A stretch of DNA of 64,000 nt from Elusimicrobiota bacterium (GTDB lineage Bacteria; Elusimicrobiota; Elusimicrobia; UBA1565). Below are positions 41,901 through 44,900 of the stretch, piece by piece. Position numbers and translations under genes: made by a program. Below the pieces are notes generated by a model. It had not been told where the DNA came from and did no database searches. It was given only the letters and a program-made list of their open reading frames with translations. Location: contig JBAZVI010000003.1 in the NCBI GenBank assembly GCA_041660925.1, positions 93,832 to 157,831 on the forward strand, written 5' to 3'. The stretch's first letter is position 1. Every line of letters starts with the position of its first letter.

Positions 41901-44900
41901 GAGCGACTGCCGGGGTCTCGCCGGAGGACGAGCCCCCGGCACTTTCGACGACGAAGCGCACGACGTGGCTGAGCGTCGGATAATCCTTGAGCGAGAGGTT
42001 CTCCTTGCGCGGGATGCCGTACTTCTCGCGGATGAGGCCGAAGAGCTCGGCCTGCTTGACGGTGTCGATGCCGAGGTCGGCCTCCATGTCGAGGTTGAGC
42101 TCGAGCATCTCGAGCGGGTAGCCGGTCTTGTCGCTGACAAGGGCGACGACCGCCTTGACGACGTTTTGCTCACCGTCCGCTGCGGTCGTCGCCGTGGGCG
42201 TAGGAATCGTCTGTACAGCGGACGGGGCAGCGATGGACGCGGCGGGAGCGGACGGCTGCGTCCCCGCGCTCGCGACGGTCCGAGAAGACCCCGCCGGAAT
42301 CCCGCCGGAGGACGGGAGTCCGGCGCTGTCGACGACGAAGCGCGCGACGTGGCGCAGCGTCGGATAATCCTTCAGCGAGAGGTTCTCCTTGCGCGGGATG
42401 CCGTACTTCTCGCGGATGATCCCGAGGAGCTCGGCCTGCTTGACGGTGTCGATGCCGAGGTCGGCCTCCATGTCGAGGTCGGCTTCGAGCATCTCGGCCG
42501 GGTAGCCGGTCTTCTCGCTGACGATCGCCACGACGTCCGAGAGGACGGCGGCCTCGTTCCCGGCGGCGATGCGCGGGGCGGGCGCCGCGGTCGGAGCCGG
42601 TGCGGCGGCGCGCTGGCCCCTCTCCTCTCGCGCCGTCCCTTCGGCGCTCGGGCCCGCCGAAGGGAGCTCCGGCTTGAAGGAAACGGCCTCCGACTGAGGC
42701 GCGGGCGCGGCGCTGTGAGAGGCTCCTCCGGTGCTCTCGAGGACGAAGCGCACGACGTGGTTGAGCGTCGGATAGTCCTTGAGGGAGAGGTTCTCCTTGC
42801 GCGGGATGCCGTACCTCTCGCGGATGACGCCGATGAGCTCGGCCTGCTTGACGGTGTCGATGCCGAGGTCGGCCTCCATGTCGAGGTCGGGCTCGAGCAT
42901 CTCCGCCGGGTAGCCGGTCTTCTCGCTCACGATCGCGAGGACGGTGCGCCGGATGTCCTCCTCTCGCACCGCACCTGCGGCGCTAAGGCCCGCCGCAGGT
43001 GTCGACGGGCGAATGGCAGCCGCCGGCGTCGGGGAGGGAGTCTGCCGGGCAACAGGCTGCGGCAGGGAGATGGGAGTCGGATGGACCGCGGGCCCGGGGG
43101 CTGGAATGTTTGTCGCGCGCGCGGCGGCGGCGTTCTCCTTCACGCGCAGGGTGTTCTGGACGACCTCGAGCTCCGGCGCGTCCTGCCCGGACATCGCCTT
43201 GAGCCAGGCCTTGTGCCGGGCCGGGTCGGCGATGCGGGCCTCGCCCTTGCGCAGCACGCGGCGCGAGAGGGTCATCGCGATCTGCGAGCCGAAGCCGGCG
43301 GCGAGCCGGATCGCGTACTCGAGGTCGTAGTCCCCCCCGCGGCTGAGGTTGATGCCGGCGAGGTCGGGGTCCGCTTCCTTGTAGTTGGCGATGGGCGGCA
43401 CGACGCCGGTGACGAGCGCGCGGATCGCGGTCGGGTCTTCGGGAGAGGCGCCCATGGAGTGGCCGGTGAAGCCCTTGGTGTTGGTCACGACGATCTTCGC
43501 CGCGTCGGCGCCGAAGGTGCGCTGGAGGGCGGCGACCTCGGCCGAGGCGGAGCCGCCGCGGGCCGGGGTGTAGGTCTCGTGCGACATGAAGAGCGCCTTG
43601 GCGGCGATCGCGCGGCGGTCCACGCCGAAGCGCTTCTCGGCCTTGGCGACGAGGCGGCCCATGACGTCGGCGACGTGGTTGGGCTCCAGACGCGTGGCGT
43701 GGAAGGCGCTGTTCTCGTACTGCGTGGAGAGGATCTCGACGAGCGGACGCATGCCGCGCTCGGCGGCGAGCGCGCCGCGCTCGAGGAGCATGCCGGCCGC
43801 GCCCATGCCGACGATCATCCCGTGACGGCGGCGGTCGAAGGGCAGGGCGGCCTCGCTGACGACCGCGCTCGTCGTCGCGGCGCCGGCGGCGACGAAGCCG
43901 GAGAGCATCCATTCGCGCAGATCCGTTCCCGAGGGGTCGTCGCCCGCGATGATGAGGACGCGCTCGGCGCGTCCCAGGCGAAGCCAGTCCTCGGCGACGC
44001 CCACGGCCTCGGTCGTCGAGGCGCAGGCGGCGTTGAGGTGCATGCCCGGCCCGCGCGCGCCGATCCACTGCATGAGCTGGGAGTGGGCCAGCGGCATGAC
44101 GCGCAGCAGGAAGTCGCGGCTGAACTCGTAGGGGGCGGCGCTCCCGTGCTTCTCGTAGTAGGGTTGGAAGCTCTCGGTCTGCCAGCGGCGCAGGGCTTCC
44201 TTCTCGGAGGGATCGGAGACCTTCTCGACGAGGGCGTCGAAGAGTTCGGAGAGCTCGCGCAGCGGCTTGCCGCGGTACTTGTCGGCCAGGTAGCGCGCGA
44301 CCTCGGAGGCCATCGCGTCGAGGTTCGTGTAGGCGGAGGCGAAGATGACGCCGGTGCCCGCGCGCAGCGGCTCGGGCAGGGCCCACCCGGAGGGCAGCAG
44401 CGTCCCCAGCGAGGTCTTCTTGTAGGTGCGCACGAGCGGGAGGCCCGCGTCGCGCAGCGCGAGGACCCCCGCGGCGACGGCGAGGCGCGAGGCGCTGTCC
44501 ATCGCGTGCACGAGCGCGTCCTTGAAGCCGAACTCCTTGGCGAGGTCGAACTCGCCGGCGACGCCCGCCAGCCGCACGACCTCGGCGGCCGACTGGATGC
44601 GCTCGAGGCGGTGGTTGCCGTCGTCGGACTTGATGAGGCGCAGGATGTTCTTGTCGATCTGACGCTCGGCCTCGGATTCCGGCAGGCGGCTGATGAGGTT
44701 CTGGCCGCGCAGCAGGGAGTCGATGCCGTCCTCGCGGAAGACGCGCTCCCACTGCCCGGGGGTCCCGGCGGCGACGCCGCTGACGACGACGGGGCCGGTG
44801 TAGAAGCCCCATTTCTCGTCCTGTGCGGCGGTGCGCTGGTCGCTCTCCGCTCGCACCGTCCCTGCGGCGTTCGTGCCGGCTGCACCGGCACCTGCGGCCG

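Follow-up and report, generated by a model that had tools for sequence, protein, structure and literature searches.

Short double-hairpin DNA repeats within coding genes of an Elusimicrobiota sub-lineage and how they may have spread

The best-documented examples of palindromic repeats in frame within coding genes come from Rickettsia and from a few MITE families in enteric and other bacteria. In the passages of PMC10969869 and PMC2229807 that deal with the Rickettsia palindromic elements (RPEs; after Ogata et al. 2000, 2002), these repeats are described as lying in frame in many unrelated coding genes, with some intergenic copies; each family has a conserved peptide and orthologues without the insert, and the mobilising mechanism is given there as not known. 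The intragenic MITEs ERIC, the 107-bp Correia/NEMIS, YPAL and QMITE1 are small, non-autonomous and stem-loop-forming, with terminal inverted repeats (TIRs), usually TA target duplications and a mainly intergenic placement (PMC2229807, PMC10969869). Template switching creates and homogenises hairpin arms, including those in coding DNA (PMC8794818, PMC8604942). The Elusimicrobiota family described here is short, very GC-rich, built of two hairpins with clean Watson-Crick covariation and confined to a single frame, and would constitute a second, independent system of in-frame coding palindromes. REPs are by definition extragenic; they share a conserved head of the GTAG type, and a Y1 transposase gene (RAYT) is linked to them. 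The IS200/IS605-derived PATE have two subterminal hairpins and no TIR or target-site duplication (TSD), and are inserted 3' of a fixed tetra- or pentanucleotide. Reports of such coding palindromes in Elusimicrobiota were not found in the literature.

The window, the whole stretch of 64,000 nt analysed here, comes from an Elusimicrobiota MAG. In this sub-lineage the repeats sit within coding genes, at places that correspond to linkers, loops and tails of the proteins (Table 1). The unit, ~60 nt long, is made of two abutting hairpins, H1 (11 bp) and H2 (7 bp, 16-nt loop), in that order. Type 1 (~60-64 nt) is composed of H1 TCCCTTCGGCG-N8-CGCCGAAGGGA and H2 CGGCGCG-N16-CGCGCCG; in type 2 (~81 nt) the H1 loop is expanded to 28 nt and holds an inner hairpin. 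The units have a GC content of ~76-81% and encode the peptide (L/V)PSAGxSAEGTAREExGxRAAA. The 5' boundary, (C/G)TCCCT, is sharp in all near-intact copies and the 3' boundary is fuzzy.

Table 1. Positions of repeat copies, their hairpins and two host genes in the window
Feature	Position	Strand	Description
Copy A	42602..42669	-	Canonical type-1 unit, pfaA ACP1-ACP2 linker, encodes LPSAGPSAEGTAREERGQRAAA; 80 bits
Copy A H1	42665-42636	-	11-bp stem, 8-nt loop
Copy A H2	42635-42606	-	CGGCGCG, 16-nt loop, CGCGCCG
Copy B1	48786..48853	+	Pro-rich membrane protein; H1 matches A at 31/32 nt; 73 bits
Copy B1 H2'	48817-48852	+	Diverged, still a perfect 10-bp stem, 16-nt loop
Copy B2	48858..48913	+	Tandem with B1; H1 degenerate (ACGCCGCACCCCCGAGCGCGTCAGG); H2 matches A at 35/36 nt; 34 bits, outside training set
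Pre-ACP1 diverged copy	42938..43005	-	Directly upstream of ACP1 in pfaA; PAAGLSAAGAVREEDIRR
Pre-ACP1 copy H1	42972-43001	-	Perfect 11-bp stem kept after three compensatory double changes; H2 CGGTGCG / CGCACCG
Post-AT type-2 copy	44829..44911	-	~81 nt, pfaA linker after AT domain, LPASAAGAGAAGTNAAGTVRAESDQR; 39.7 bits, outside training set
H2-only relative	41824..41869	-	N-terminus of ACP4, VTTAREEDVLRAVVT, perfect 16-bp palindrome; 22.6 bits
PPTase degenerate copy	38286..38353	-	Within 44-aa insertion, gene 38150-38980, PPSASQSASGAMRKENCPR; 34.7 bits
Zn-ribbon tail type-2 copy	58884..58966	+	C-terminal tail of Zn-ribbon/TM protein, gene 58436-58984, VPASDVGAGEAGTNAAGTTREADGSR; 38.6 bits
Intergenic copy	32054..32123	-	Between DUF192 gene (31526-32068, +) and GNAT gene (32138-32764, +), antisense to both
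pfaA-like megasynthase gene	38992..47793	-	KS-AT-KS-like-4xACP-KR-DH; MFA6029319.1, Elusimicrobiota MAG
Pro-rich membrane protein gene	48144..49247 (ORF 48075-49247)	+	TM segment, coiled coil, variable Pro/Ala-rich region, GPVWPV end

The perfect 11-bp hairpin noted in the preliminary description is real (TCCCTTCGGCG / CGCCGAAGGGA, 8-nt loop, 42636-42665). It lies inside the minus-strand 2933-aa ORF of the pfaA-like gene, between PP-binding domains 1 and 2, and reads ELPSAGPSAEGTAREERGQRAAAP. The near-identical nucleotide copy reported from the Pro-rich membrane protein was also recovered, on the plus strand (site B, 48786-48913). Copies A and B have in common two blocks, of 32 nt and 36 nt, each with one mismatch, and are 96-97% identical with three differences in all, none of them within the stems. 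Each of the two patterns, GAGCTCCCTTCGGCGGGCCNGAGCGCCGAAGG (32 nt) and GACGGCGCGAGAGGAGARGGGCCAGCGCGCCGCCGC (36 nt), gave two matches in the window with up to three mismatches allowed, and no match in 100 shuffles at the same threshold. On the 5' side of the family core, A and B also share the extra bases AAGnCGGAGC. They are 6.1 kb apart and mutually inverted on the DNA because their host genes are divergent, and both are sense and in frame. The divergent arrangement of the Pro-rich gene and pfaA is the same in relatives. The extra DNA in site B, previously taken for an insertion of ~55 nt, is present but measures 60 nt (20 codons) and is a diverged second unit. These 60 nt form a hairpin of the H2 type, its 16-nt loop included, and a degenerate H1 comes next; copy A plus a foreign insert is ruled out on these grounds. 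Site B is a tandem of two units, not one interrupted unit.

Eight copies were detected in the window by a covariance model, which was built without five of them and scored all eight at 34-83 bits. Seven are coding, all in sense orientation and in one shared frame: pfaA has three, the Pro-rich gene a tandem pair, and the PPTase gene and the tail of the Zn-ribbon protein one each. The eighth is intergenic. Six of the eight lie within 11 kb around pfaA, which carries the H2-only relative besides its three full copies. The post-AT copy has an outer stem (CCCTGCGTCG / CGCCGCAGGG) that encloses an inner hairpin (GTGCCGG / CCGGCAC), followed by H2. The intergenic copy (41.8 bits with a model trained without it) retains an H1-like stem, CCTTCCG.CGGC / GCCG.CGGAAGG, and an H2 of CGGTGCG / CGCACCG with a 16-nt loop. 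Tandem, partial and H2-only forms all occur, as seen in B1/B2, in a second partial H1 in a related contig (L015) and in ACP4. With the stem set to 10 bp or more, the window contains 18 perfect hairpins, against ~5 expected from a first-order Markov model. A weak peptide match at 35835-35861 was dismissed, as the DNA there forms no hairpin. A Logan contig identical to 55142-64000 extended the window by 2.2 kb, and no further copy was present on this extension.

Further copies were found outside the window. A scan of metagenomes for the H1 stem, in a collection that does not include the source genome, identified three contigs with contiguous, near-identical type-1 units, all from one other metagenome. 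The hosts on these contigs are DnaX (after domain III), an amidase, in the linker that directly precedes its Amidase_3 domain, and a Pro-rich protein beside pilT. The pfaA gene of a related MAG (L021) contains two copies, at the pre-ACP1 and post-AT positions, and the H1 subtype of its post-AT copy is identical (24/24 nt) to that of the pre-ACP1 copy in the window, although these sites are non-orthologous. Overall, 12 coding copies are known at nine sites in eight genes (pfaA, PPTase, two Pro-rich proteins, the Zn-ribbon protein, DnaX, the amidase and pfaA of L021). All are sense and in one frame, though all six frames of the unit are open.

Other searches were negative or uninformative. A scan of a genome collection (H1 stem, free loop; source genome not included) gave 10 matches with unrelated loops and flanks, which were rejected as chance. 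Nothing was found in viral contigs and plasmids, and Rfam covariance models gave no match over 41700-49300 at E <= 1. A 32-aa peptide query had no match among 1.84 billion representatives and was too short for power. Against a set of 5.8 billion proteins, an X-padded 28-aa peptide profile yielded two candidates, none of which scored. A 10-row profile with natural flanks yielded 8000 candidates from the same set, probably of low complexity, and again none scored. A similar natural-flank profile run locally on known members reached E ~1e-7 to 1e-11; since such a profile works on known members, the null result reflects a failure of candidate selection and says nothing on absence.

The preliminary description had named two findings that would speak against a repeat, namely restriction to sites A and B and similarity driven by the amino acids. 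Neither was observed. The eight window copies are joined by the three on metagenome contigs and the two in the related MAG, and conservation follows the nucleotides: rare codons and synonymous sites are fixed, loops vary and stems change by compensatory double substitutions. In all five near-identical type-1 copies the codons CCT (3.3% of Pro codons), CGA (4.0% of Arg) and GAA (15% of Glu) are fixed, whereas the codon in the H1 loop specifies P, Q, L or H (P = 0.012). The identity of rare codons beside varying loop residues places the conservation at the nucleotide level. Across a stem in L021, a synonymous change (CCT to CCA) is paired with a non-synonymous one (GAA to GAT). Stem cells (n=144-162) are 93-94% paired; none is one-sided and none is G:U, and the observed value was reached by 0/500 shuffles. 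Double-sided changes occur in 7 or 8 of 18 pairs, among only 8-9 related sequences. Both hairpins come back in every fold, with a stability above that of shuffled sequence (z ~-1.4 to -2.7).

Every coding copy lies outside Pfam domain matches, in inter-domain linkers, in tails or, in the PPTase, in a segment without counterpart in four orthologues. The proposed comparison with orthologues bore out the insertion: the 44-aa PPTase segment is missing in these four and the Zn-ribbon tail in the orthologues of L019, L023 and L024. No copy is present in pfaA of L019, L022 and L024, and the peptide does not occur in any Pro-rich protein homologue.

By analogy, the closest described counterpart is the Rickettsia palindromic element. 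The repeats behave as RPEs do, as units at the DNA level that are maintained at places where an added peptide is apparently tolerated. Both systems have in-frame palindromic DNA in several unrelated genes, a conserved peptide, insert-free orthologues and intergenic copies, one in this case. The Elusimicrobiota repeats differ in their length (~60-81 nt, against 105-150 nt in RPEs), their high GC content, their phylum and their two side-by-side hairpins, whereas an RPE forms one long stem from both ends. They are also, in the available data, almost exclusively intragenic and strictly in one frame. Judged by unit composition (~76-81% GC) and length, homology to RPE-1 to RPE-10 is very unlikely.

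On balance, we lean towards a lineage-specific, RPE-like family of short double-hairpin DNA repeats that has spread by templated copying, with the A/B pair as its youngest event. The hairpins would form in single-stranded DNA during replication or repair, and the nascent strand would switch template, or a gene-conversion tract would be copied, between stretches of GC-rich, codon-phased linker DNA. Such copying could move or refresh a unit with its orientation and frame preserved, and template switching within the palindrome would keep the arms perfectly complementary. Selection would remove copies that encode Arg-rich alternative frames. Copies A and B may represent the most recent copying, between neighbouring divergent genes. 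Templated copying is favoured over transposition because of the extra 5' bases common to A and B, the fuzzy 3' end, the tandem, partial and H2-only forms, the clustering near pfaA, the lack of a transposase in the scanned ORFs, the excess of palindromes and the documented cases of template switching. Quasipalindrome template-switch mutagenesis likewise gives perfect Watson-Crick arms, one-step changes on both sides and new peptide segments in coding DNA (PMC8794818, PMC8604942, PMC7202029). It is, however, described as local within one inverted repeat, whereas here a whole two-hairpin unit occurs in unrelated genes and genomes.

The next explanation is a non-autonomous transposable element (a MITE, a REP or a minimal IS200/IS605-type PATE) mobilised by a transposase encoded elsewhere that acts on both hairpins in single-stranded DNA, with survival only of benign in-frame insertions. 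The sharp 5' boundary, the H1 subtypes identical at non-orthologous sites of different genomes and the copies in dnaX and the amidase gene are more easily reconciled with an element moved by an enzyme than with local template switching. The unrelated target genes on several contigs and in several genomes and the opposite orientation of the intergenic copy agree with mobilisation, and a pair of adjacent hairpins lacking a bracketing TIR or TSD recalls the hairpins at the left and right ends of IS200/IS605-derived elements. A bracketing TIR was not found: between the H1 arms lie only 8 nt (28 nt in type 2), with H2 outside, and no inverted repeat consistently spans the unit. The flanks of the five near-intact copies have no common fixed-length direct repeat that could be a TSD, and the longer host repeats near B and on contigs L013 and L015 are irregular. 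The four nucleotides upstream vary (GAGC, GCGC, GCGG, CGCC, TCTC, CCCG), and no conserved target sequence precedes the copies. Scans of 20 ORFs in the left half of the window and the annotation of its right part showed no transposase domain. MITEs are equally small and stem-loop-forming, but their TIRs, TA duplications and mainly intergenic placement were not seen here. REPs and BIMEs are likewise short, GC-rich, repeated imperfect palindromes, and one copy does lie between two genes; seven of the eight window copies are, in contrast, intragenic, the units begin with (C/G)TCCCT and not with a GTAG-type head, and no Y1_Tnp match was obtained in the window ORFs scanned. The initial reading holds insofar as the element is a repeated palindrome, conserved at the nucleotide level and translated in frame in apparently tolerant linkers of unrelated genes; membership in REPs or MITEs in the strict sense is not supported, as no transposase, TIR or target duplication was seen. 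Very strong selection would also be needed to leave 12 of 12 coding copies in one of six open frames, and the orientation of A (-) and B (+) follows gene sense and not one DNA strand, which argues against insertion biased by the replication strand. Mobilisation by such an enzyme is possible but doubtful.

The uniform sense orientation and single frame might have a more specific origin, though we think this unlikely: frame-preserving copying on transcribed linker DNA (hairpin-stalled, microhomology-templated or transcription-coupled), or selection of the double hairpin as an intragenic domain-boundary signal. Either would be a new way for bacteria to add or remodel inter-domain linkers. The compensatory stem changes could be a trace of selection on a functional structure. 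Taken further, the units would be structured modules under selection, either a pair of mRNA hairpins that slows ribosomes or marks processing before folded domains, or a regulatory DNA structure, and the peptide would be incidental. Copies immediately upstream of ACP1 (in two genomes), Amidase_3 and the C-terminal region of DnaX, the sense orientation of all coding copies, the covariation that keeps both stems and the folding stability above shuffled sequence are consistent with such a module. It is made distinctly improbable by the absence of G:U pairs among 144-162 cells, which is unusual for constraint at the RNA level, by the lack of the units in orthologous genes of close relatives (e.g., L019) and in the PPTase and Zn-ribbon orthologues, by the intergenic, antisense copy, by the lack of an Rfam match and by the decay of the PPTase copy and of H1 in B2.

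It is highly improbable that the nucleotide similarity is a by-product of a short linear motif (LPSAG..TAREE) at the protein level, or of what remains of the N-terminal boundary of ACP repeats. All coding copies do give the same peptide, and TAREE(D/N) natively opens ACP1 in the window and in L021, as well as ACP4 in the window and ACP2 in L021. A protein motif, however, does not account for fixed rare codons and synonymous sites beside freely changing loop residues, for a synonymous change paired with a non-synonymous one across a stem or for an intergenic copy; the DnaX, amidase and PPTase hosts have no ACP repeat, and the outgroup ACPs (L019, L022 and L024) lack TAREE.

The Elusimicrobiota repeats bear on two questions: how hairpin DNA spreads inside genes, and how the linkers of multidomain enzymes gain length, here in the ACP region of a PUFA-type synthase. 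On the practical side, short exact inverted repeats within genes can fragment assemblies and make unrelated proteins look homologous. An isolated local event or an assembly artefact as the sole link, between A and B only, can hardly be entertained: the two sites are 96-97% identical in neighbouring genes 6 kb apart and the exact PfaA and Pro-rich proteins are on record from one contig only, but further copies already contradict it, related ones are present in independent assemblies (JGI Ga0172379 contigs, GCA_016212885.1 and a Logan contig), both ORFs are open and synteny with relatives is kept. In cluster look-ups, each of PfaA, the Pro-rich protein and the Zn-ribbon protein was a singleton, with no strain variants that could show filled and empty alleles.

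Two adjacent hairpins are present in every copy of the unit that was folded. In the first (H1), an 11-bp stem closes a loop of 8 nt, GGCCNNAG; directly after it comes the second (H2), in which CGGCGCG and CGCGCCG enclose a 16-nt loop. In type-2 copies the outer H1 stem is retained and the enlarged loop contains an inner hairpin (GTGCCGG / CCGGCAC). A perfect H1 inverted repeat (TCCCTTCGGCG / CGCCGAAGGGA) was located in copy A of the PfaA-like megasynthase gene (pfaA), between ACP1 and ACP2 as the preliminary description had placed it, where the unit is translated as ELPSAGPSAEGTAREERGQRAAAP. 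The megasynthase contains KS, AT, a second KS-like region, four PP-binding (ACP) domains, KR and a PKS-type DH (Pfam).

The near-identical nucleotide copy in the divergent Pro-rich membrane-protein gene (site B) was also recovered: blocks of 32 nt and 36 nt each occur exactly twice in the window with one mismatch between A and B per block, and none was matched in 100 shuffles. A and B, which differ at three positions, all in a loop or flank, form an inverted repeat on the DNA with a spacing of 6.1 kb, each being sense and in frame. The additional DNA in B had been described as an insertion of ~55 nt; it comprises 60 nt and consists of an H2-type hairpin (GTCCGTCGCG, 16-nt loop, CGCGACGGAC) and then a degenerate H1, so that B amounts to a pair of units in tandem, B1 and B2. 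The parts of B that match A are H1 from B1 and H2 from B2. Contiguous H1-H2, as in A, is the usual form of the family, and A could have given rise to B, or B to A, via in-register recombination or conversion. Host direct repeats of 24 nt (CCGCnCCCGTCGTGAAGnCGGAGC, PAPVVKxE; 165-nt spacing) lie on both sides of B, and in metagenome contig L013 KPPSSPQALP precedes the unit and recurs directly after it. These repeats are not classic target duplications, since their lengths are irregular, and may be slippage duplications.

The element is not unique to these two sites. Diverged copies were found in the window with a profile of five near-identical copies and then with covariance models, of which R2 was trained without I32, M, Z, P38 and B2 (see table). 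A pattern with the H1 stem fixed and its 8-nt loop left free matched ten sites in 185,579 species genomes, none with a related loop or flanks, and eight loci in JGI metagenomes. Three of the eight (L013, L014 and L015) carry the whole contiguous unit TCCCTTCGGCGGGCCnnAGCGCCGAAGGGACGGCGCGAGaGGAGaa...CGCGCCGCC; all are from metagenome Ga0172379, have a GC content of 0.69-0.71 (window, 0.708) and have only the element in common with the window. Their hosts are unrelated: a Pro-rich protein downstream of pilT (L013), an amidase directly upstream of the Amidase_3 domain (L014) and DnaX after domain III (L015). The L015 dnaX gene repeats the first 15 nt of the unit (gcTCCCTTCGGCGGG) ~100 nt past the full copy, just ahead of the C-terminal domain, where they form another H1-like hairpin whose loop is larger (ALPSAGSGKALSAE). 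This may represent a solo H1 or be left over from the copying-in of the unit. Two further copies are present in pfaA of the related locus L021, at the pre-ACP1 and post-AT positions, and none in the related loci L019, L022, L023 and L024.

Copies of the unit and other features (window positions unless a contig is named; bits from model R2 unless stated)
Feature	Position	Strand	Site or description	Bits
ORF	35518-36066	-		
20-bp stem hairpin	36387-36430		carboxyltransferase gene/ORF interval	
Carboxyltransferase gene	36546-38153	-		
Syntenic pfaA region	36546-50203			
pfaA	38992-47793	-	2933-aa ORF	
Pro-rich gene	48075-49247		390-aa ORF, divergent from pfaA	
I32	32054-32123	-	intergenic	41.8
P38	38286-38353	-	PPTase	34.7
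A (type 1)	42602-42669	-	pfaA, linker of PP-binding domains 1/2	
Perfect inverted repeat of A	42636-42665		11 bp, 8-nt loop	
Pre-ACP1 copy	42938-43005		upstream of ACP1	31 (nhmmer)
M (type 2)	44829-44911	-	pfaA, post-AT linker	39.7
B1	48786-48853	+	Pro-rich gene	
B2	48858-48913	+	Pro-rich gene	34.4
Z (type 2)	58884-58966	+	Zn-ribbon protein tail	38.6
Host direct repeat	48766-48806, 48931-48971		both sides of B	
Other palindrome	41501-41526		post-ACP4 linker (SAIAPAIAE)	
Other palindrome	41824-41869		ACP4 N-terminus	
Other palindromes	58508-58541, 58645-58672		Pro-rich part of Zn-ribbon protein gene	
H1-like recurrence	L015, ~1064-1115	+	dnaX	
pfaA with other repeat	L019, 1569-9689; L020, 2037-9689	-	relative with P0002	
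P0017 gene	L021, 10001-10930		Pro-rich orthologue	
PPTase gene	L021, 700-1527			

The constraint acts on DNA pairing and not on the peptide. In alignments of eight and nine sequences, a sample of few, related members, 93-94% of the cells are paired and both-sided changes occur at 7 or 8 of 18 pairs (10-13 cells), with no one-sided or G:U cell. These values were reached by none of 500 shuffles, a control that is not a probability, and pairing drops to 30-58% when the register is slid. Position 6 of H1 is T:A, G:C or, in I32, C:G, and position 5 in L021 is A:T, where a synonymous change (CCT to CCA) is paired with a non-synonymous one (GAA to GAT). The H1 stem of the pre-ACP1 copy is still perfect over 11 bp despite three double changes. 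Five type-1 copies have CCT, CGA and GAA in common, codons with shares of 3.3%, 4.0% and 14.9% within their synonymous sets across the genes of the window, and among random synonymous versions of the peptide's coding sequence just 1.2% are this unusual. The H1 loop codon is free to vary (P, Q, L, H). Amino-acid conservation is thus not what drives the similarity.

Translation of the palindrome in presumably tolerant linkers of unrelated genes, as first proposed, is seen in all 12 coding copies (nine sites, eight genes), which are sense and in one frame; copy counts and the coding/intergenic split cover the 64-kb window, the metagenome contigs and the relatives' loci. On direct reading the unit is stop-free in all six frames. 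Of the alternative frames, four are very rich in Arg and one, antisense, is mild, so selection alone accounts for much of the frame and sense bias, perhaps not all. The neighbouring A and B track gene sense and not one DNA strand, which counts against replication-strand-biased insertion, and orientation is not intrinsic to the element, since I32, the sole intergenic window copy, is antisense to both flanking genes.

The Pro-rich protein has an identical match in an Elusimicrobiota MAG, the hypothetical protein WC969_05670, and its next-best homologue has 50% identity over the N-terminal 42% only. The family has a TM segment, a conserved coiled coil, a hypervariable Pro/Ala-rich region and a GPVWPV end; the element peptide was present in none of ten homologues inspected. 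A 15-billion protein collection contains PfaA and two neighbouring proteins as singletons. Gene order is kept in five related MAGs or contigs, with pfaA-PPTase-carboxyltransferase on one side and the Pro-rich and PorV-like genes on the other. KS-AT identity of PfaA to the window is 76.5% for L021, 73% for L019 and 62-65% for L022 and L024.

Homologues lacking the insertion were found. The PPTase copy lies within a 44-aa segment absent in the PPTases of L019, L021, L022 and L024, and the C-terminal tail of the Zn-ribbon protein (~40 aa, with a type-2 unit) is absent in three orthologues, this region being confirmed by a Logan contig (100% identity over 8.9 kb). The pre-ACP1 and post-AT copies are common to L021 and absent in L019, so either they are older or L019 has lost them. 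The L021 post-AT H1 equals the window pre-ACP1 H1 at 24 of 24 nt, which points to inter-site exchange or common subfamilies. The H2 5' arm encodes TAREE(D/N), a peptide with which ACP1 and ACP4 natively begin in the window, as do ACP1 and ACP2 in L021; outgroup ACPs lack it. In ACP4, H2 persists as a perfect palindrome of 16 bp. The unit was either taken up at the ACP boundary, spreading afterwards with ACP duplication, or it arose at that boundary. Its range extends beyond ACP repeats, as copies occur in DnaX, amidase, PPTase and the intergenic site.

Read at the sequence level, the family is a repeated, nucleotide-conserved double hairpin that is translated in frame in linkers and was gained in some genes. 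Its spread would be best explained by template switching that the hairpins promote, or by gene conversion, between stretches of GC-rich, codon-phased linker DNA. Such templated copying is favoured by the ragged 3' ends, the tandem and partial forms, the clustering around pfaA, the additional 5' bases common to A and B, the exclusively Watson-Crick double changes and the general overabundance of perfect palindromes in DNA that encodes linkers (18 perfect hairpins with stems of at least 10 bp in the window vs ~5 expected). Template switching creates and homogenises hairpin arms, in coding DNA included (PMC8794818, PMC8604942). Transposition of an enzyme-mobilised element is ranked second: the sharp 5' end, the subfamilies common to different genomes and the copies in distant genes are in its favour. 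No bracketing terminal inverted repeats (TIRs), fixed-length target duplications (TSDs) or conserved 5' target sequence were found at the units, no transposase domain in the ORFs scanned (20 left-half ORFs and the annotated right part of the window), and no Rfam (41700-49300), plasmid or viral match.

The finding is real, and the REP/MITE-like reading was largely right in kind, the element being a coding palindromic repeat; the extragenic position, GTAG head and RAYT that define REPs and the TIRs and TSDs that define MITEs do not characterize it in the copies and ORFs scanned. Like Rickettsia palindromic elements (RPEs) and intragenic MITEs, the units are fused in frame to unrelated ORFs and encode a conserved peptide, with orthologues free of the insert (PMC10969869, PMC2229807). 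Unlike them, the family is shorter (~60-81 nt vs 105-170 nt), differs in composition, has two hairpins side by side where they have one long end-to-end stem, lacks TIRs and TSDs and is nearly all intragenic in the sequences examined. A search of the literature turned up no description of comparable elements from Elusimicrobiota. The family is a new one of RPE-like coding palindromes in a new phylum.

Several other features of these loci were recorded. The other palindromes listed for linker-coding DNA have stems of 11-16 bp. The PUFA-synthase-like pfaA (KS-AT-KS-like-ACPn-KR-DH), with its PPTase and carboxyltransferase, is syntenic in several Elusimicrobiota MAGs (L019-L024) and always divergent from the TM/coiled-coil/Pro-rich and PorV-like genes; in L023 it encodes just 1477 aa (AT and KS only). 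L019 (ENA) and L020 (JGI) represent the same locus, with pfaA products of 2706 aa and 2550 aa and two and one DLGIDT ACP motifs, respectively; either a tandem ACP repeat was collapsed in one assembly or copy number genuinely varies. A different palindromic repeat, also in frame, occurs in their ACP linkers in both orientations, VIPAKAGT(Q/A) (TCCCGGC-GAAA-GCCGGGA) and LDSG(L/F)RRNDEK (ATTCCGGC-TTGC-GCCGGAAT), seven times in the 2706-aa version. Hairpin repeats in general appear to collect in the ACP linkers of this clade. Further repeat families may be active in L021, where P0017 contains GRSPLPERAAA twice and the PPTase has lineage-specific insertions of its own (e.g., VPNIRTALVRDVPNQRISDVWYG and NLPNEAGSIRPNLRCLGGLGVS). 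The perfect 20-bp stem between the carboxyltransferase gene and ORF 35518-36066, with a 4-nt loop and AAA and TTT at its flanks, looks like a bidirectional terminator.
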